Origin: a virus
Taxonomy: Duplodnaviria; Caudoviricetes
Strand: one strand, 5' to 3'
IMG/VR virus record: IMGVR_UViG_3300023105_000131
Span: 1 to 29,256 of that record
Length of the DNA stretch: 29,256 nucleotides
The position numbers and the translations under genes were made by a program. The notes under the pieces were generated by a model that searched no databases, was not told the origin of the DNA, and saw nothing but the letters and a program-made list of their open reading frames with translations. How positions within the stretch are numbered: the first letter of the stretch is position 1; every line of letters starts with the position of its first letter. This document shows positions 1 through 27,341 of the stretch, in pieces.

Positions 1-602
1 CCGCTTGCTGGTGATCCATCAATTTTCATACCTACACCATCGCTAGTGATACTCGAGCAGTTTTGTACGTAAGGACTTGTAGTAATTGCTCCTGCACCTG
101 CTGCTGGAAATGCTACTGCCGCAGCACCAGTTGTGTGTCCACGGAACGTGACACCAGCAATATAGCAAGCATTGTTTAAATGTAAAATGTCATTGGTTGC
201 AACCGCACCCCGTATAGTTGTGCTTCTAAGATTATCGCCAATAATAGTAACACCTGCAGGAATAACTAATGGATTATTTGCAACTGTATGATCGCCTGAT
301 TTAACAAAAATTGTATCACCTGATGTTGCAACTGCAACGGCAGCGTTTAATGTAGCAAACGCTTCTGCAATAGTGTCACCGTCTAGTGTGTCGTCACCAT
401 TTTCTTTAACGTAATAAACATTTTCAGCACTGTCTGGTCTACCAACTTCTACGATAGATACTGCTCCACCAGTGCTTGTTTGATCTTGTTTGAAAAACAT
501 AACACCGTCATGGGTGTTGATTGCAACTTCACCTAGAGCAAGTTGTGCTGTTGTAGGCACTTTTCCAGGAGTCGCACTTCTTCTTAACTTAATCGTTGAC
601 AT
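1..602 (-). CDS. Virion structural/fibre protein, truncated by the window edge; Mtd_N-like N-terminus followed by a pectin-lyase-like beta-helix
   Basis: Not in the ORF track; translated by hand from the ATG at 602: MSTIKLRRSATPGKVPTTAQLALGEVAINTHDG...VYYVKENGDDTLDG...AFATLNAAVAVATSGDTIFVKSGDH...VTIIGDNLRSTTI...SPYVQNCSSI. The frame is open to the window edge. AGAAGG SD-like sequence upstream. Confidence 0.75.
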   Translation of the reverse strand, partial: MSTIKLRRSATPGKVPTTAQLALGEVAINTHDGVMFFKQDQTSTGGAVSIVEVGRPDSAENVYYVKENGDDTLDGDTIAEAFATLNAAVAVATSGDTIFVKSGDHTVANNPLVIPAGVTIIGDNLRSTTIRGAVATNDILHLNNACYIAGVTFRGHTTGAAAVAFPAAGAGAITTSPYVQNCSSITSDGVGMKIDGSPAS

Positions 603-621
603 TTGTCTTACCTTCTAACAC

Positions 622-654
622 GGCTATATAGCCAGGCCCGGGGTTATATAACCC
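622..654. repeat. Two tandem perfect palindromes, GGCTATATAGCC (622-633) and GGGTTATATAACCC (641-654), in a gene leader
   Basis: Read directly; centres are 20 bp apart; they lie between the late promoter (670-676) and the ATG at 602. Confidence 0.8.
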
Positions 655-669
655 ACTTTAGCTTAATAC

Positions 670-676
670 TATTTAT
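670..676 (-). promoter_or_regulatory. T4-type late (gp55) promoter ATAAATA
   Basis: CATAAATAG on the minus strand in the intergenic gap upstream of a structural gene; resembles the T4 late consensus TATAAATA. Confidence 0.65.
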
Positions 677-677
677 G

Positions 678-3600
678 TTAGTAAGTACCGCCGTCAATGT
701 CACCTTCAAATAGTCCTGCTTCAATAGTGTCACTACCAGCAGTCCATTTGTCATTTGTTTCGTCCCAGATAAAGCTCTTTGTAGGTTCAGAACCACGTAA
801 CACTTCAATACCAGAATCTTCAGTTGGTGAAGTAACATTAGTAATGTCAGCATTTAGTGTAATAATATTATCGCCAACATTTAACGTTGTAGTGTTAATA
901 TATGTTGTTGTACCGCTAACTGTAAGATCACCAGTAATAGTTACATTTCTAGTAACTGACAAATCACGTGATACAGTAGCATCATTTCCTACTGTCAGAT
1001 CGTTTGTAATTTGTGCAGTATTGCCTACACCTAAATCATTTAATATTGTTGCATCAGTACCAACTTGTAATGTTGTACCAATAGTTGCGGCTGCAGTTAC
1101 ACCTAAATCATTAGATACTGTTAAATCATTAGTAATAGTAACATCGTCTGGTAAACCTATTGTAAGTGTCTGATTAGCTGCAGATGTTTCGATTTCATTT
1201 GCTGTGCCTGACAATGTAAATGTTTGTGTTCCAAGATTAACTGTACCACTAGTTGGTCCATCGCCATTAAAGTTTAAATCAACATTACCTACACTACTGT
1301 CAACATATGCTTTGATACTTTGTTGTGTGGCAAGTGCAACATCGCTGTCGCTCGCCATATTATCTTCATCTAAAATTCTATCGATTGTAGTGGTACTTGC
1401 TACATTTGCCATAGCAAGAGCAGTGATAGTAGTTGTTAGTACACCTGTAGTAGAGTCTAATACTATTAAGTCGTTTGTTCCGTCACTTATACTTAATGCA
1501 TCAGCAGTATTAGCTGGTATTAGTATTCTATTTTCGCCTGTTGCACCCAAGAACTGAATATCTTCAGTAATGAATAAATCTCTCCAGCCTTTAGTTGCAC
1601 TACCTAAATCATATGTATCTGTGACGTCTGGAATAATATGACTTGTTAGTTCGCCGCCTAGCGAAATATTATCTGTATCGGAATCACCAATGGTAATATT
1701 TCCACCAAGTGTCAAATTACCAGTAATATCTGTGTTACCTGTCAGTACATTAACTTTAAATGTTTCTGTTCCTGCAGCACCTATCATGAAATCTGTGCCA
1801 TCATAACGTAGGTTGGAATCGCCTTCTAGTTCACCAAGTGCACCAGCAACAACAATTTGATTATCTGTTAAATCTTCTACGTTGGCACTTGCTAATGTTG
1901 CTTGGCCGTCAGTTTCAAGTGTACTTACCGTATATACTGCACCAGTTGCTCCATCAACAGTAAAGTTTGCATCAACTTCAATGCCGCCGTCTAAACTAGA
2001 CACGCCAGTAACAGTTAATGTGCCTGTCACTTCTGCATCATCGTCAATAGTAACAGTACCATCTGCGCTGTCGATTGTTAAATTGCCAGAGCTAGTATCT
2101 ATTTCATTATCACCAGTAATACCAATTTGTATATTGCCTGCTGTAGCACCTGTAAATGTACCATCACCAAATGCAACATTACCTGCTGTACCACTAAAAA
2201 CTTCACTGGCATTAGTTGCATCGGGAATAAATGTAAACACTTCAGCACTATCATCATAACCAAAGAAGCCAAGTTTTGCACTAACACCATCATGCCATTT
2301 AAATTCAATACCTCTATCTTTGTTATCGTCTCCTGCAGGAGTTTGATCTCCCCCAAGTGTAAAGATAGGATCATCAATTGTAACTACTGTACTATTAACA
2401 GTAGTTGTTGTTCCATCAACTTGTAAATTACCTGCAACTTGTAAATCACCGGCTGTGTATGTATTACCACTTGCTTGTTGTACTGTAAAGTTACCAGCAC
2501 CGATATTAAATTCGGTACCATCAAATGTTAGATTAACATCATCTTCTAGTTCGCCGGCGGTACCGACGATAACAATACGATTGTCTGTTAAGTCCTCGAC
2601 ATTTGCACTAGCAAGAGTTGCTTGGCCGTCTACATCAAGTGTGCCTGCAATTGCTGTATTACCATTTGCAACTGTTACATCAAATGTTTCACTACCAGAT
2701 GGACCAATATGAAAATTAGTACCATCGAAACGGAAGTTAGCATCGTCTTCTAATTCGCCTAAGTTACCCGCAATAACAATTCTATCATCGGTTAAGTCTT
2801 CTACATTAGCACTTGCTAGTGTTGCTTGCCCGTCAGTTTCTAATGTACCTGCTGTATAAACATTTCCTGTTGCATGTTGCACTGTAAAGTTAGTAACACC
2901 AACTGCTAGTTGTGTTCCGTCCCAAACTAAGTTAGCATCACCGTCAACAGATCCTGCTGTACCTGCAAACATAATGTGTGTTGCTGTAACATCACTGATT
3001 GTTGCACTTGCTAGTGTTGATTCACCTGTTACATCAAGTGTGCCTGTGATAGCTGTATTCGGTGTGATTGTTATTAAATTAGCGCCTGTAGTACTATTAA
3101 AAACTATAAAGTCATTAGTTCCGTCTGTTATAGACAGCCCATCTGCTAAGTTAGTTGGAAATACAATTTCGTTTTCAGTAGTAGCACCTTCAAATGTTAA
3201 TGCTTCTGTTAGATATATGTCTCTCCATGCTTTACCTGTAGCACCTAAATCATATGAGTCTGTTACATCTGGCAATACATCAGAACGTATATCACCATTA
3301 ATTGTAATTGTGTCAGTATCAGCATCACCAATTGTAACATCACCTAATAGCTGTGTAGTACCACTAACAACTAAATTTGTTAAACTTGCTGCGCCAAAGT
3401 CAACATCGCCTACTGTTCCGCTAAAAACTTCGTTTGTATTAGTTGCATCTGGAATAAATGTAAATTTACCAGTGCTATCATCAAAACCAAAGAAACCAAC
3501 TTTTGCAGATGATGTAGGAGTATCATACCACTGGAATTCAATACCTCTATCTTTATTGTCATCTGTAGTTGGTGCTGCATCTCCACCTAATGTAAAAATA

Positions 3601-4682
3601 GGATCATCGATAGTAACAACTGTGCTGTTTACTGTAGTTGTGATGCCATCAACTTGTAAATCTCCTGTGATTGTTAAGTTACCAGAAATTGCAGTATCAC
3701 CTGTATTTCCATCAACAGTAAATTCTGTTAAATTAAGTCCAAGTGCTAGATTTCCATTTGAATTAAGTTGCATAACATGTATGCCAGCAGCATAAAAATC
3801 TATTTCGTCGTTGTCTGCACCTGCACTTGTTTCAGCAATAATATATGTATCACCGTCAACATCTTTAACACCACCAAGTGACCCCCAGTTAGTTCCATCA
3901 TAACCTTCAAATGTTGCATCTGTTGTGTTATAACGGATCATACCTTGTTCTAGTGGTGTTGGTCTTTCTAATGTTGTGCCAGCTGGAATAGTAAGTGCAC
4001 CTGTACCAGTAATACTAACATTGTCTGCTAATACTGAAAGTTTACCAGTGCCGTCAGGATCTAAAATAATATCGCCATTGGTGTTTGTAACACCAATAGT
4101 ATTACCATTAAATGTAAAATTAGCAATTGTTGCACTAGAAAGATTAGACCCTTTATTGCCAGTGTAACGTGCACCAACTACATATATAACTTTACCTGCT
4201 ATGCCAGATGGTAAGTTATCTCCAATAAAGTTAAGAACACCGCTTTGATAATCAAAATACCATTCATCGTTATTACCGCTACCTGCTGCGAATAACTGTG
4301 TTCCTGTTGATTGTGGGGTTGCAGCACCACTATTATCTAAATAAACTTTAATCTGATATGTACTTCCAAATTCAGTAGGTATCCAGTCTATAGAGTTTGT
4401 TTTCCATGTTCTGTTAGGACTAGCTGTCAAGTCAGGTGTACACTGAACAGTTGCTTGACCATTGCCACTGTCATCATATATTTCTACAGTAGTTGTTGAC
4501 GCTGTTGGTTTTGTTGATGGAATTTGAGATGCATCTTGCCAAATGTTATCACCACGTATTAATAGTGGACTAGCAATACTTTCGTTAGTTGCAGCCTTAA
4601 TGCTATTAATATCTGTTTTTGCTATACCGTAACCTAACTTTTTCCAAAGCCAGTCTACTTTTTGTGATTCATTTATAGCCAT
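678..4682 (-). CDS. Large repeat-rich virion structural/tail fibre protein (1334 aa)
   Basis: G/T/D/N-rich. Internal repeats: ATLASANVEDL x3 plus one degenerate copy, DDNKDRGIEF module x2, YDLG module x2. Shares the QGMIRYN..FEGYDG..WGSLGGVKDVD module with the neighbouring gene. Confidence 0.75.
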   Translation of the reverse strand: MAINESQKVDWLWKKLGYGIAKTDINSIKAATNESIASPLLIRGDNIWQDASQIPSTKPTASTTTVEIYDDSGNGQATVQCTPDLTASPNRTWKTNSIDWIPTEFGSTYQIKVYLDNSGAATPQSTGTQLFAAGSGNNDEWYFDYQSGVLNFIGDNLPSGIAGKVIYVVGARYTGNKGSNLSSATIANFTFNGNTIGVTNTNGDIILDPDGTGKLSVLADNVSITGTGALTIPAGTTLERPTPLEQGMIRYNTTDATFEGYDGTNWGSLGGVKDVDGDTYIIAETSAGADNDEIDFYAAGIHVMQLNSNGNLALGLNLTEFTVDGNTGDTAISGNLTITGDLQVDGITTTVNSTVVTIDDPIFTLGGDAAPTTDDNKDRGIEFQWYDTPTSSAKVGFFGFDDSTGKFTFIPDATNTNEVFSGTVGDVDFGAASLTNLVVSGTTQLLGDVTIGDADTDTITINGDIRSDVLPDVTDSYDLGATGKAWRDIYLTEALTFEGATTENEIVFPTNLADGLSITDGTNDFIVFNSTTGANLITITPNTAITGTLDVTGESTLASATISDVTATHIMFAGTAGSVDGDANLVWDGTQLAVGVTNFTVQHATGNVYTAGTLETDGQATLASANVEDLTDDRIVIAGNLGELEDDANFRFDGTNFHIGPSGSETFDVTVANGNTAIAGTLDVDGQATLASANVEDLTDNRIVIVGTAGELEDDVNLTFDGTEFNIGAGNFTVQQASGNTYTAGDLQVAGNLQVDGTTTTVNSTVVTIDDPIFTLGGDQTPAGDDNKDRGIEFKWHDGVSAKLGFFGYDDSAEVFTFIPDATNASEVFSGTAGNVAFGDGTFTGATAGNIQIGITGDNEIDTSSGNLTIDSADGTVTIDDDAEVTGTLTVTGVSSLDGGIEVDANFTVDGATGAVYTVSTLETDGQATLASANVEDLTDNQIVVAGALGELEGDSNLRYDGTDFMIGAAGTETFKVNVLTGNTDITGNLTLGGNITIGDSDTDNISLGGELTSHIIPDVTDTYDLGSATKGWRDLFITEDIQFLGATGENRILIPANTADALSISDGTNDLIVLDSTTGVLTTTITALAMANVASTTTIDRILDEDNMASDSDVALATQQSIKAYVDSSVGNVDLNFNGDGPTSGTVNLGTQTFTLSGTANEIETSAANQTLTIGLPDDVTITNDLTVSNDLGVTAAATIGTTLQVGTDATILNDLGVGNTAQITNDLTVGNDATVSRDLSVTRNVTITGDLTVSGTTTYINTTTLNVGDNIITLNADITNVTSPTEDSGIEVLRGSEPTKSFIWDETNDKWTAGSDTIEAGLFEGDIDGGTY

Positions 4683-4691
4683 CTCTCACCC

Positions 4692-7600
4692 TTATGTTAT
4701 ACTCAATCCTGTTATACTTTGGTTTGTGTTTAATGCAATACGCACTAGTGCTACATTTCCTGTAGCATTTGTTAAGTTTTCGGTACCTAGCGTCATAGTG
4801 AACCCACCACTTAATGCTGTATTATTTGCAATAATATCTCCACCTGTTACTGCACATCCGTTGCTTCCGTTACCGCCATTGCCAGTATCTGCACCTGGTA
4901 CACCAGAGCCAGCATACTGTATACCGCAGTCTAGCCAACCGTTAATTGTACTTGCACTGTCTATTGCTGTACCTGGTGCTGCAATCCAAACACCACTAAC
5001 GCCTGTTGTACTTGTAATATTAATCGTAAAGTTAGCAACAACTGTTCTGCGGAATGCAAATGTAAAATATTGCACTCCAGTATCGCCGCTTCTGTCTGGA
5101 CCGGCTGGTAAAAATGTACTGTAGTTTTCTACATTATGTTCTAACACACCTAATCGTATTGTTGCTTCTTTTGTTCCTGTTACTCCAGGGTCTGCTGCTT
5201 CTGTATATAAATTGTTTGTATAAAAATTTGTTGCACCTGGTATTACAGGGTTATCTGTAGTTGCTGCACTAAAGTCAAATATACGAACACCATTATCTGT
5301 ATATGTTGAACCTAAGCTGTTATTAACATCGATTGCAATTTCATTAATACCGCTTTGGTTAGCAGTATGTACTGCAACTGATTCTGATAATATTTGATAG
5401 CCACCAGAACCATTAACATTAGTTGCACGGTGTTGTAAATTTTCAATTGTTCTAACACTGCTACTGGTAATGTTAACTGTTACATCTCCAATTGCATAAG
5501 GTGTTCCATTTCCTGTGTCTGCATTTGGAATTCCACCTGTTAAGAAGGTAACAGTTCCGTCAATATCTGAGTAAGAATAATTTTGTGTACTAATTGCACT
5601 AGACCCAGTACCTTCTAAATTTGTACCACTAGAAACTTCAAATACATTGGTTGTATTTCTATATGTTTGTCCGATAAAGTCTTCAATTGTAACTCCGCTT
5701 AGTGTCAATGAACTACCAGTGTCGTAATAAGGAACACCACTGATGTATTTGTAGTTTCCTACATTTTCTGTTAGTGTTCCGCCGGCTGTTGTTGGTGTAC
5801 TTGTTAAGTTATCTACAACAAATTCTACAGTATTTGTATTTCCTGTTGTACTATGACTTAACTGATAATCGTTTGTACCTGCTGTGAAACTTGCACCACT
5901 TTTACTAACTTGTGCTTTAAATCCTGTATATAATCCTGGATGATAGATACTACTATTAAATGTTGTACTACTGCCTCCTGAATTTAATAAGTTATAATCT
6001 TCTTCATCTGTAACAACAAGACTTGTATATGTGCCTGTTTGATTTGTATTACTAAATGTCACATTACCGTCGTCTACACCATTAACTAGTGCAGTAAGTG
6101 TACCAGCATCTGCATCGTATGCATATGTTGAAATAACACTAGATGATATAGTGCCACTATTAACAACACGTGTTACAGAAGAGCCTGCTGTTGTAGAACT
6201 GGTATTGTTGTTTGTAAATCCAGATGTTAACAATGGATCTGTTCCTGTACTACTAGGTCCACTAATAGTTTTTGTGCTTAACCCATCTGGTACAGCAATA
6301 TTTGGATCGTATACTTTTAATGGCAGCGTTACTAATGATGGTATTGTTGACGGGTCTGCTGTACTATGAGAAGTCAATGTTAGTAATAAATTGTCTCTAC
6401 TGGTTCCAGAACTTGTTCCTGGTCCCCATGTATGTTGTAATCTTGTACCATTAACTCCACCAGGATCATTGTCGCTAGCAATATTGTCTACTGCAGTGCC
6501 GTCTCCCCAATCCATTGTATATGTAACACTGGCTCCACCAGTATTACTGGTATTGTTTTGCATATATAAACTGTCGCCTTCAATCACATATAAATCGTTT
6601 CCTGTTAAATCAGTACCGCCAGTTACTACACGATAGAGTTCAAATGCGGCAACTGCATTTGCTGTAAAGATCACAATGTAATCTTCACGTGTAGAACTTG
6701 CTTCGCTACCGGCACTGCCACTAATAGCATTGTCATTGTAAGCTCTGACTGTTACAGTAAATGGACTGTTTACGTTTGAATTATATGTATAACTAGGCGT
6801 ACTATCGGTTGTACCAATAGTAGTACCACCATCTCCCCATGTAATATCGTATTTGTTTGCATTACCATCTACATTTAAAGTAAGTGTAATAGTTGACCCA
6901 GCACCTGCCGAAGTTGGCGTACCAGTAAATGTTATTGCACGTACAAATGTATTGTTGCGTACATTTTCTAAAGACTCGTTTAATTCGTCTAGTACATCAA
7001 CAACTTTATCAGTATCAACAAATCCCAAGTAGGCACCATCTTGCCATGTGCCGTCTGTTGGTGTACCTGCTGTAGCTGATAAACTATTTTCAACCCAGTC
7101 TTTTGTTACTAAATCTTGTGCATTTGTTGGTATATATGTTGCTTCTGCTGTGATTTGACCTGTACTATCAATAGTCATTCTATTAACACCGCCAGTATAA
7201 AAATCTAACTCGTCATTATCTGCACCAGGACTGTCTTCTGCACTAATATAAGTATCTTGGTCAACATCTTTAACACCGCCTAGCGATCCCCATGCTGTAC
7301 CATCATAACCTTCAAAAGTTGTATCATCGCTATTATAACGAATCATACCTTGTGCTGGTGCGCCAGGACGTTCTGCAACTGTGCCGACTGGTAGCACAAG
7401 AGATCCTGTTACATCAACTGTAATTGTTTCTGTATTACTGTCTAGTGTTTGAACATATGCTGTACTCCAATTTTGTAGTGTACTTCCTAAATCATATGTC
7501 GCATCTGTATTTGGAATAACGTTACTATTAACATCAGCGTTAAACACGACATTATCTGTGTCATCATCACCAACATTGATTGTACCGCTAGTACCTGCTT

Positions 7601-11885: not shown

Positions 11886-11893
11886 TATTTATA
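11886..11893 (-). promoter_or_regulatory. T4 late promoter TATAAATA (perfect consensus)
   Basis: Plus-strand TATTTATA at 11886-11893, overlapping the stop codon of the upstream gene. Confidence 0.7.
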
Positions 11894-12494
11894 TTGATCC
11901 CATATCAATCGTTAGTGCATTAGGTGCAGCATATGATCCCATGTCAATATCTGATCCGAGAGATAATAGATATCCGGTTGCACTTGTGTGGTAGTTTGTA
12001 TTATAATAACCAAAGTCAAAAGAACTAATACCAGAAGTGCTGCCAGTACCATTTAAATTAACCCATTCTCTTGTAGCAAGAGTTCCGTCTTCGTCTGGTA
12101 AAATTACATTTCTGTCTGCAGTTGCAGCAAGTGCTTGTAATTTAATTTCGTAATCATCTGGTACAGTACCTTCAAAAATTAACTTAGTTTGTTGTTTAAT
12201 CCAAATGTTTCCTGTAGGATATAATGCAATGTCAGCACCGCTATGTATGTCTAGATCATCACCACTAACACTGTTAACTTTACTTGTAAAAACTTCACGC
12301 CATGATTTTGTAGATGTACCTATGTCGTAAGTAGCATTAACATCTGGAACAATATTGCTAGTAATGTCTGCTGTTAAACTAATACTATCAGTGTCAGCAT
12401 CACCTAGTATCACATTACCATTTGCTGTAACATTTCCTGAGAGTGTAATATTACCAGTAACATCCAAATCTTGTTTAAATTTTGTCGAACTCAT
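11889..12494 (-). CDS. Virion structural protein (201 aa) sharing the GDADTD...PD...YDIG...W module with the large fibre genes
   Basis: ILGDADTDSISLTADITSNIVPDVNATYDIGTSTKSWREVF; TADRNVILPDEDGTLAT; GGAG SD; own late promoter. Confidence 0.7.
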   Translation of the reverse strand: MSSTKFKQDLDVTGNITLSGNVTANGNVILGDADTDSISLTADITSNIVPDVNATYDIGTSTKSWREVFTSKVNSVSGDDLDIHSGADIALYPTGNIWIKQQTKLIFEGTVPDDYEIKLQALAATADRNVILPDEDGTLATREWVNLNGTGSTSGISSFDFGYYNTNYHTSATGYLLSLGSDIDMGSYAAPNALTIDMGSI

Positions 12495-12515
12495 ATCTTA
12501 TCTCCGTACTAAAAG

Positions 12516-12522
12516 TATTTAT
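12516..12522 (-). promoter_or_regulatory. T4-type late promoter ATAAATA
   Basis: GCGATAAATACT on the minus strand, directly after a terminator and upstream of the ATG at 12494. Confidence 0.7.
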
Positions 12523-12534
12523 CGCATAGAGATA

Positions 12535-12563
12535 AAAAAAGCTAGCACAAGGCTAGCTCTTTT
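12535..12563 (-). terminator. Intrinsic terminator closing the non-coding unit
   Basis: Minus strand AGCTAGC-CTTGT-GCTAGCT followed by a T tract. Confidence 0.75.
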
Positions 12564-12590
12564 GTAGTCATCAATTTGAAAGGAAAAGCA

Positions 12591-12697
12591 ATTATAGTGT
12601 TTTAGTATACACACTCACTTGATAGCCTCTCGGCCCTTGTCCTATGCACAGGAAAGCAGGTGCATCTACTCTGGCGTGTATACTAAAACACTATAAT
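12591..12697. repeat. Perfect 22-bp inverted repeat (12591-12612 / 12676-12697) around a 63-nt structured spacer
   Basis: ATTATAGTGTTTTAGTATACAC and its exact reverse complement GTGTATACTAAAACACTATAAT. Confidence 0.95.
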
Positions 12698-12912
12698 ATA
12701 TGATAGGAGGGACTCGAGAATACCCTCAACCTAGGTTTACAGTCTCGCTGTCTAATACCCAGGAGCCTAGCATTGGATAGTTACTTCCAAAATACGCATC
12801 TTCATGTCTCCATGCTCATGCGCTGCTACTACAGCTACTAGCCAAGTTCGGAGCCTGTCTACTCCTCTTCCTTGCACTATCTAACTCGGACCGTCGTCTC
12901 TGTTATGTTTAT

Positions 12913-12941
12913 AATATAGTATATACAGAAACAAATGTCAA
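12913..12941 (-). promoter_or_regulatory. Sigma70-type promoter TTGACA-N17-TATATT with an A-rich UP-like region
   Basis: -35 at 12941-12936, -10 at 12918-12913, 17-nt spacer; predicted start near 12906; no ORF follows. Confidence 0.75.
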
Positions 12942-12963
12942 CACTTTTTTTAAAAAAAGTCAC

Positions 12964-12990
12964 AAAAAAAGGCACCGAAGTGCCTTTTTT
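12964..12990 (-). terminator. Intrinsic terminator of the major capsid gene with a C(UUCG)G tetraloop
   Basis: Minus strand AAAAAAGGCAC-TTCG-GTGCC-TTTTTTT, 20 nt after the capsid stop codon; potentially bidirectional. Confidence 0.9.
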
Positions 12991-13009
12991 CTTATTGTGT
13001 GAAAACCTA

Positions 13010-14170
13010 TTACTGGAATGATAGGTTGTTTGTTGTAACAGCAATTTTACTTAGGTAATCTGCTGCGTTACCTAGCGATGATGCTTGGTTGCTTAGTTCA
13101 ACATAACCATAACGTGTCATGAAGCTAACAACTGGCTCGAATGTCGCTGGGTCTAGTACTGTACCGCTTGACATTAGTGGGATGTATGGGCAATAGAACG
13201 CTGCTGCGTCTGTTTCTGTTGAACCCTTGTAACCTACTAGGATGTCGTCGTTTGCTGCGTACTGGTTTACATAAACACGCATAGTACCGTTTAGTGTACC
13301 TACGAATTTTGTGTTTGTTGGTGCCTCGAAAGGACCTTCAGTTGTACGTGCAAATGCGCTTGTTGTTGCTGACTGTAGAACAGTTAGAACGTCTGGGCTT
13401 ACAACTGCCCAGTTACCTGCGCCACGGCGTGTACGTGCTGCAATTGTGTTTGCATTTTTGTTGATTAGAACTGCTAGTGCTGCATGTTCGTCACCAACGA
13501 AAGTAGCTGTACCACTTACACCTGCTTGGTTGTATGTGTCAGCTGCTGCGCCTGCTAGACTTGTTAGAGATGCAATGATCTCTTGGTCGATTTCAGCAGT
13601 AATTTCTTGTGCAAGTGCTTGCATAATTTCTGCTTCGACGTCTAGGCCGTGCATTGAGTTAGCGTCTTGCGCTGCTTCAAATGTCCAACGTGCTGATAGC
13701 TTACGTGTTTTAGCTTCAACAGTTTGCTTTAGGACTTGAATACTCATTTTCTTACCTGCTTCACCTTCTAGTGTTGCAGTTGCATCCGCTCTGTTTGTTG
13801 TTGCGTTACCTGAGTAACCTGTTGCAATTGCGAATGGGCTTAGTGCTTCATCACCTGCAGTTGCGCTGTCAAATGTTTCAGCGTAACGTACACGTAGTGT
13901 GTGAATCTGACCAACTGGGCCTGTCATAGGCTGTACACCAACGATCTCGTTAGCAATAACAGTTGGCATTACACGGCGAATAACTGGAAGAATCACTTTG
14001 TTAAGTGTTGCAACGTTGCCTGCTTGAGTTGCACCAGCACTTGCACTTTCTGACAAGTAACGCTTAGTGTTTTCAAGTGTTGTTTCCATCACTTTTTTCT
14101 TTGTTCCAGTTAGACCGTCTGTTAGGGCTGTTTTAGTTTCTGCCCAATTTTCCATTAGGTTGTCTGCCAT
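13010..14170 (-). CDS. gp23: Major capsid protein, T4 gp23-like
   Basis: LPVIRRVMPTVIANEIVGVQPMTGPVGQIHTLRVRY; VEAKTRKLSARWTFEAAQD...HGLDVEAE; AFYCPYIPL; F.PVVSFMTRYG; follows the scaffold and protease genes. Confidence 0.95.
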   Translation of the reverse strand: MADNLMENWAETKTALTDGLTGTKKKVMETTLENTKRYLSESASAGATQAGNVATLNKVILPVIRRVMPTVIANEIVGVQPMTGPVGQIHTLRVRYAETFDSATAGDEALSPFAIATGYSGNATTNRADATATLEGEAGKKMSIQVLKQTVEAKTRKLSARWTFEAAQDANSMHGLDVEAEIMQALAQEITAEIDQEIIASLTSLAGAAADTYNQAGVSGTATFVGDEHAALAVLINKNANTIAARTRRGAGNWAVVSPDVLTVLQSATTSAFARTTEGPFEAPTNTKFVGTLNGTMRVYVNQYAANDDILVGYKGSTETDAAAFYCPYIPLMSSGTVLDPATFEPVVSFMTRYGYVELSNQASSLGNAADYLSKIAVTTNNLSFQ

Positions 14171-27289: not shown

Positions 27290-27313
27290 TAAAAATTCCT
27301 TTAAATCTTTTAT

Positions 27314-27341
27314 ATTATAACATTGTCAAATAAAATGTCAA
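27314..27341 (-). promoter_or_regulatory. Consensus sigma70 promoter TTGACA-N16-TATAAT with extended -10 TG, upstream of gp55
   Basis: -35 at 27341-27336, -10 at 27319-27314; AGGA SD before the ATG at 27289. Confidence 0.75.

Follow-up and report, generated by a model that had tools for sequence, protein, structure and literature searches.

The manA motif was described by Weinberg et al. in 2010 (PMC2864571) as a candidate riboswitch in potential 5' UTRs, with examples from cyanophages, from two gammaproteobacteria and from metagenomes of marine origin; the corresponding Rfam family, RF01745, is of the cis-regulatory type. Its covariation has been re-analysed since (PMC7779021; 10.1101/2020.02.04.933952), and the accessible sections of PMC9964418 call its regulatory role unverified. 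According to the accessible part of a recent preprint (10.64898/2026.07.01.735769), manA RNAs of fewer than 200 nt form 8-, 10- and 60-mers by cryo-EM, with all five named variants oligomerising. The L5-L7' and L8-L9' contacts are pentamer interfaces of the icosahedral 60-mer cage of manA_A0F1, other variants giving 8- or 10-mers through other contacts; the cages were formed in vitro at about 3 mg/mL from constructs without genomic context, and manA is still termed putatively cis-regulatory there. A second precedent is provided by GOLLD and ROOL, whose loop pairings, first seen by covariation, proved to be intermolecular (accessible part of 10.1101/2024.12.08.627333). No report of manA as a stand-alone transcript was found in the literature searched, in which subscription journals are sparsely covered.

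The locus considered here lies in a stretch of 29,256 nucleotides (IMG/VR record IMGVR_UViG_3300023105_000131), referred to below as the window. It represents part of the genome of a T4-superfamily-type myovirus and carries genes for portal, prohead protease, capsid, tail-related proteins and a late sigma factor. The major capsid protein gp23 (386 aa, 13010..14170, minus strand; PHROG 138, E 3e-104) is encoded immediately upstream of the RNA and finds its best cultured match, 70% identical, in the Pseudomonas jumbo phage PA5oct; since relatives with 77-80% capsid identity sit on contigs of up to 200 kb, estimated to be 57% complete, a jumbo phage is the likely source. Downstream on the same strand is a 201-aa gene with weak tail-fibre-like similarity (11889..12494; PHROG 25747, E 8e-6). 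Between the two we find a manA-type RNA of 206 nt with helices P1-P9 (12701..12906, minus strand). Our favored reading, to which we assign a probability of roughly 0.55, is that this is an early, free-standing manA-type RNA whose copies join with one another to make a multivalent scaffold or decoy. Host polymerase would transcribe the cassette early from a sigma70-type promoter, the transcript would fold as manA, and copies would then pair loop to loop between molecules (L5-L7 and L8-L9), giving pentamers and closed cages. Such an oligomer would serve in this capacity and not as a riboswitch, either by sequestering host factors (nucleases or defence sensors, for example) or giving shelter from them, or by retaining small RNAs transcribed along with it; the early timing and any decoy or anti-defence function are inferred. 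Taken by itself, the assembly-plus-scaffold mechanism has in our analysis about an even chance of being correct.

That the RNA is of the manA type is highly probable. In E-value mode the minus strand matches RF01745 over the whole model (1-192) at 12904-12697 with 34.7 bits and E 2.7e-7, and all nine manA helices are found in order; the other 15 matches obtained in this mode in the region are weak and fall on terminators, on the stalk of a second module described below or on the promoter region. A gathering-level Rfam scan of the window returns no matches, the score of 34.7 bits lying under the manA threshold of 55.2. Among 17 homologous loci 14 match manA at E<=0.01, three of the 17 being above the cut-off; the scores of homologues range from 28.5 to 78.6 bits and four reach 55.2, so that routine Rfam annotation passes over most members of the subfamily. 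The preliminary description, made from the sequence by eye, had left the RNA unrecognised apart from setting aside tRNA, tmRNA, RNase P and 6S RNA, and had suggested an Rfam scan including the IMES families, an nhmmer search and a covariation test. None of the four classes is matched by Rfam or ARAGORN, and at E<=10 neither these nor the IMES and known ribozyme families match anywhere in 12450-13050; ARAGORN finds no tRNA or tmRNA gene in the window. GOLLD and ROOL, which like the present RNA are phage-borne and often near tRNAs but are several times longer and unrelated in fold, have no Rfam match in the window either.

With RF01745 the RNA shares the P1-P9 order, a GACG-capped P1, a four-way junction, a GNRA-capped P6, complementary L5/L7 and L8/L9 loops and a marine phage source. 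It differs in the conserved letters of P2, of the P3 internal loop and of L5/L7, in a longer P6 that carries an internal loop, and in its occurrence in PA5oct-related uncultured phages as opposed to T4-like cyanophages or Photobacterium; at 206 nt it is also longer than the RNAs in the accessible part of the cryo-EM preprint. Its genomic setting is a transcription unit of its own, separated by a terminator and a late-promoter motif from a tail-fibre-like gene, and it does not occupy the 5' UTR of a gene for metabolism, a chaperone or photosynthesis. Because it is both below the Rfam cut-off and outside a 5'-UTR context, we regard it as a variant that shares the fold of manA, short of formal membership of RF01745.

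Folding energy alone is a weak guide to the structure of the 207-nt minus strand (z -2.0, with 9 of 200 shuffles equally good; -61.8 kcal/mol for the manA-type fold against -63.7 for the MFE), and the case for structure therefore rests on covariation. In an alignment of 35 sequences of <93% identity, onto which the manA-type structure was mapped from the window, 85.8% of 2367 cells are paired, as compared with 71.1% after shuffling (0/500 shuffles as high) and 36-45% when the structure is slid along the alignment. Two-sided changes occur at 54 of the 70 pairs, and RNAalifold independently gives 39 pairs, 31 of them with compensatory changes. P1 is the 5' hairpin with its GACG loop, also present in the manA consensus (12882..12905; 85.5% and 89.5% paired); P2 closes the structure by pairing 12881-12877 with 12706-12702 (97.1%); and P3 (12843..12874) is a hairpin with an internal loop, its proximal helix 97.9% and its distal helix 58.8% paired in the MAFFT alignment. 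There follow the P4-P7 four-way junction (12767..12841), including L5 (12832-12828), the GNRA-capped P6 and L7 (12785-12778), with 91.9% of cells paired in P4, 93.3% in P5, 86.1% and 97.1% in P6 and 89.1% in P7; P8 (12730..12763, loop L8 at 12747-12743), three of whose pairs are among the six best of 19,701 by MI-APC; and P9 (12707..12727, 100%). The pair 12720/12715, which brackets a 4-base code in L9, is 91.4% paired with 14 two-sided cells. An additional covarying pair, 12842/12765 (G-C or A-U; MI-APC rank 10), lengthens P4 across a bulged G.

Covariation is thus seen on all helices among homologues, and six of the seven stems drawn in the preliminary description are indeed part of the conserved fold, the weakest of them being GGAGU/GCUCC (58.8% paired in the unrefined alignment). 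The seventh, CCGAGUU/AACUUGG, is complementary in the window yet would exclude both P1 and the CAAG/CUUG helix (97.9% paired); it was rejected, with 79.8% of cells paired, only 2 two-sided cells and one pair broken in 15 of 35 homologues. A pseudoknot had also been suggested between GAUAG near the 5' end and an internal ACUAUC. This pairing was likewise rejected: it reaches 80.4%, whereas GAUAG closes with the terminal CUAUC at 12706-12702 (97.1%), and the ACUA of the internal copy pairs instead with loop L5.

Two loop-loop pairings complete the predicted structure. L8 and L9 (12746-12743 with 12719-12716) are 82.4% paired with 38 two-sided cells over the 4 pairs, and the cognate score of 9.8 compares with 6.69 on permutation, no permutation of 10,000 being as high; control loop pairs are far weaker, at 128 to 7279 of 10,000. 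At least 4 contiguous pairs form in 26/35 homologues and only 3 in the other 9/35, four of which have a short, A-rich L8. Covariation runs through at least six different 4-base codes: of 14 code classes, 6 match their own partner over four bases, as against 2 of 182 cross combinations. As relatedness inflates permutation tests, a tree was built without the loop columns; this tree requires 13 or more changes of the code, and two loci at zero branch length on it (L085 and L095) carry different codes. One L8-L9 pair also ranks 20 of 19,701 in an unguided MI-APC scan of 43 representatives in which that pair was not modelled. The L5-L7 pairing (12831-12828 with 12781-12778) is 93.6% paired and varies little, with one covarying pair, A-U to G-C in 6/35 homologues, and fewer than 4 pairs in 9/35; its permutation value, 307/10,000, is no better than that of an L5-L9 control at 128. 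In the window 5 contiguous pairs are possible at each interface. Both complementarities are visible in the Rfam manA consensus and in the seed rows examined, and are therefore traits of the manA family and not new to this subfamily; the supplementary alignments of the preprint may already contain the loop covariation. In four loci (L090, L155, L178 and L180) L8 is short and A-rich, L9 is changed and the 4-base L8-L9 pairing is lost, and this subgroup may assemble differently.

From the sequence, L5-L7 and L8-L9 seem to correspond to the contacts from which the 60-mer manA cage is assembled, the helix numbering having been matched to manA_A0F1 by inference. Self-assembly of the window RNA draws support from the oligomers and matching interfaces in the accessible part of the preprint; natural selection, on this reading, has preserved complementarity at a predicted cage interface while its code changed many times. 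The main rival is a free-standing monomer in which the two pairings are intramolecular pseudoknots and a compact fold binds a host or phage protein as a decoy or sponge. Covariation alone does not separate intramolecular from intermolecular pairing, and all of the sequence evidence for a stand-alone unit and for the loop pairings fits a monomer equally well; the accessible part of the 2010 paper (PMC2864571) had drawn a 'pseudoknot?' in manA, and the cage data of the cryo-EM preprint (10.64898/2026.07.01.735769, as accessible) are in vitro only. What tips the balance is that in the solved manA structures these contacts are intermolecular and all five named variants oligomerise (same preprint, same portion), and that the covarying pairings of ROOL and GOLLD turned out to be intermolecular (10.1101/2024.12.08.627333, in its accessible part), so that we give the monomer about one chance in four by comparison. 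The natural L8-L9 code variants are ready pairs for testing intermolecular pairing and, if orthogonal, could serve programmable RNA assembly.

The capsid transcript ends at an intrinsic terminator (12964..12991, minus strand), followed by a sigma70-type promoter (12913..12941; -35 at 12941-12936, -10 at 12918-12913) of sequence TTGACA-N17-TATATT, 11/12 to consensus, both just as first described, and transcription would start near 12906. A sigma70-like pattern, which is loose and was chosen after the data had been seen, occurs in 71/71 distinct homologues against 444/14,200 shuffles (3.1%) and 27/780 window segments. Its spacing is fixed, with 51 homologues having it 28 nt from the anchor. The further arguments that a host-sigma unit stands out here and that all neighboring genes use ATAAATA late promoters are not supported: there are five other sigma70-like sites in the window, and the late motif precedes only 6 of the 14 minus-strand genes examined. 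The late sigma-factor gene has a strong sigma70-like promoter of its own at 27312-27341 on the minus strand, consistent with an early-to-late cascade.

In 53 of 71 homologues a terminator lies 10-22 nt past the RNA without overlapping the fold, and it is formed in 53/53 whole-transcript folds as compared with 8/2130 shuffles. The immediate terminator is absent in the remaining 18, the window included, most of which carry further sequence modules. In the window the cassette is closed by an intrinsic terminator at 12535..12563 (inverted repeat I5 with a T run behind it; the hairpin is present when the whole transcript is folded), giving a predicted primary transcript of about 372 nt. Relative to three relatives with 90-91% capsid identity, the stretch at approximately 12965-12541 stands as a single clean insertion of 425 nt with T runs at its edges; the ATAAATA late-promoter motif of the next gene (12516..12522) aligns with the same motif in relatives without the cassette. 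The cassette is gained or lost as a unit among relatives, and because the five closest capsid relatives have no RNA at the site behind the capsid gene the RNA is probably dispensable. On other contigs it lies within a tRNA array (L147) or before an hsp20-like gene (identity by eye). The varied settings and the clean insertion fit a portable RNA gene and not a leader, and with the promoter in 71/71 and the terminator in 53/71 homologues there is good support for a phage ncRNA of ~205 nt with a promoter of its own. For manA, listed as a candidate riboswitch ever since 2010, this subfamily supplies the context of a self-contained mobile unit, which suits an RNA acting in trans more than a switch.

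Between the manA-type RNA and the terminator the window holds a second structured module of ~107 nt (12591..12697, minus strand), a perfect 22-bp stalk (12697-12676 with 12612-12591) around a conserved core of 63 nt, with a folding z of -6.83 and no credible Rfam match in an E-value search. It had been overlooked in the preliminary description, as had the manA match, both loop-loop pairings and the downstream terminator. A 17-nt core pattern of the module is found in 76 viral loci: 31 have tmRNA-spacer flanks, 21 lie behind the window-type manA subfamily, 11 lie between a different manA and tRNA-Pro, 2 are of another type and 11 are unclassified by the flank rule, the last including several alpha-type tmRNAs and one group that is a false match; a relaxed pattern gives 67 loci, all on contigs already found. 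The ~100-nt module (L201-L276) moves among three settings: the spacers of tmRNAs, arrays of tRNA genes and the flank 3' of manA. On phage contigs the spacer of two-piece (permuted) tmRNAs of the alphaproteobacterial type shares its core, the window module differing in the lack of tmRNA halves, in its own 22-bp stalk and in its position behind manA; the accessible portion of PMC11915505 does not describe a tmRNA spacer of this type. The core can be drawn as two adjacent short hairpins with complementary 6-base loops or, alternatively, as a pseudoknot. A proposed structure for the module did no better than shuffles (394/500), the core being nearly invariant and two helices out of register. At least four other recurring modules occur between manA and the terminator (L087, L099, L101, L104, L110, L141, L162, L178, L180, L185, L198), with no credible Rfam match in the four loci examined (L099, L104, L110, L141), and a further example is at 1830-1945 of L400.

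The second module is likely to be released by processing. In another reading of the locus, manA would be a 5' leader that stabilises, or a platform that helps to process, a variable string of small RNAs and tRNAs transcribed behind it, with the downstream module as the active product. The 18 homologues without an immediate terminator, the tRNA-Gly that follows the RNA in L026, the tRNA array of L147 and the recurrence of the window module as a tmRNA spacer all lend themselves to such a view. It is nevertheless doubtful, since 53 of 71 homologues have the terminator right after the RNA with nothing behind it, which makes manA itself the usual product. A bolder version of the self-assembly reading, which we consider speculative and improbable as a whole, would have these marine phages build a cage of RNA alone inside infected cells, beginning in the first minutes of infection, with L8-L9 as a lineage-specific self-recognition code by which kin RNAs alone co-assemble, the cage sheltering or presenting co-transcribed small RNAs (the tmRNA-spacer module, tRNAs) against host nucleases and defence.

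Less probable still than a leader for small RNAs is a metabolite-sensing riboswitch or other cis-regulatory leader of the downstream gene, the role in which manA was first annotated, in Rfam as cis-regulatory and in the accessible part of PMC2864571 as potential 5' UTRs. A terminator does separate the RNA from the next gene, which speaks for such a leader; however, it never overlaps the fold and is formed in all 53 folds, leaving no overlapping expression platform. Moreover, a late-promoter motif follows the RNA in 60/71 homologues (a count made without a control comparison), the types of downstream gene vary and the commonest also follows the capsid gene where there is no RNA, and the cassette behaves as a clean indel; in L007 a gene with an N-terminus closely similar to that of the window's downstream gene comes directly after gp23. 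Finally, that the locus is a small peptide gene or antisense RNA with incidental structure is very improbable, for although there is a 36-aa ORF inside the RNA and sense-strand ORFs of at least 25 aa occur in 25/43 homologues, all ORFs inside the RNA are, as noted at the outset, tiny (<=36 aa), the sole ATG column conserved in >40% of homologues (0.56) is the start of frames that differ in length, most often 5 or 12 codons, RNA lengths of 201-212 nt do not keep frame, and covariation follows base pairing.

Returning to the manA-type RNA itself, its distribution was established in several ways. Of 80 viral loci collected by capsid similarity, 20 match the region by nhmmer and 23 by a custom model built here, some of the latter by construction, and the RNA is present in 21 of the 62 loci having at least 450 nt after the capsid stop. 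A 17-nt pattern gives 120 viral loci, 121 with the window, of which 18 were truncated and 3 unparsed, leaving 100 sequences, 71 of them distinct; selection by this pattern biases the homologue set toward one subfamily. The same pattern has 120 matches in GTDB, of which 119 were scored (L396 was left out), the best at 18.4 bits against at least 88 for real members, so that no cellular copy was found. Against cultured phages blastn gives only short terminator-like matches, and the custom model finds nothing in 3/3 cultured relatives (PA5oct, Vibrio phage 2.275.O and Phosso), although, as a positive control, the same search over 5 viral records matched the 2 in which the RNA was already known. 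As to the host, an alphaproteobacterial-type tmRNA is present on two contigs with the same manA subfamily, but neither fragment has a capsid gene that would tie it to the window.

Metatranscriptome contigs lie on the RNA in 7/7 runs examined, the runs having been chosen for containing this stretch and the contigs showing neither strand, ends nor level. One 182-nt contig covers 12700-12875 without differences and one X6 piece crosses the promoter, while 12528-12691 is uncovered in the 7 runs, an absence that carries no weight. We take these contigs as presence only, a weak hint of expression.

Several minor observations concern the neighborhood of the cassette in other phages. In L134 (479-672) the manA copy breaks off after L7, where a late-promoter motif follows directly, possibly a decaying cassette. 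The post-capsid site is also one where glutamine riboswitches and freshwater-2 leaders cluster, lying between the capsid gene and manA in L020, L028, L068 and L075 and downstream at many loci. In L400, IF3-like, ribosomal S21-like and hsp20-like ORFs (identities by eye; 699-1459 and 2149-2649) flank the RNA cassette, and an alpha-type two-piece tmRNA is located 8 kb from it.
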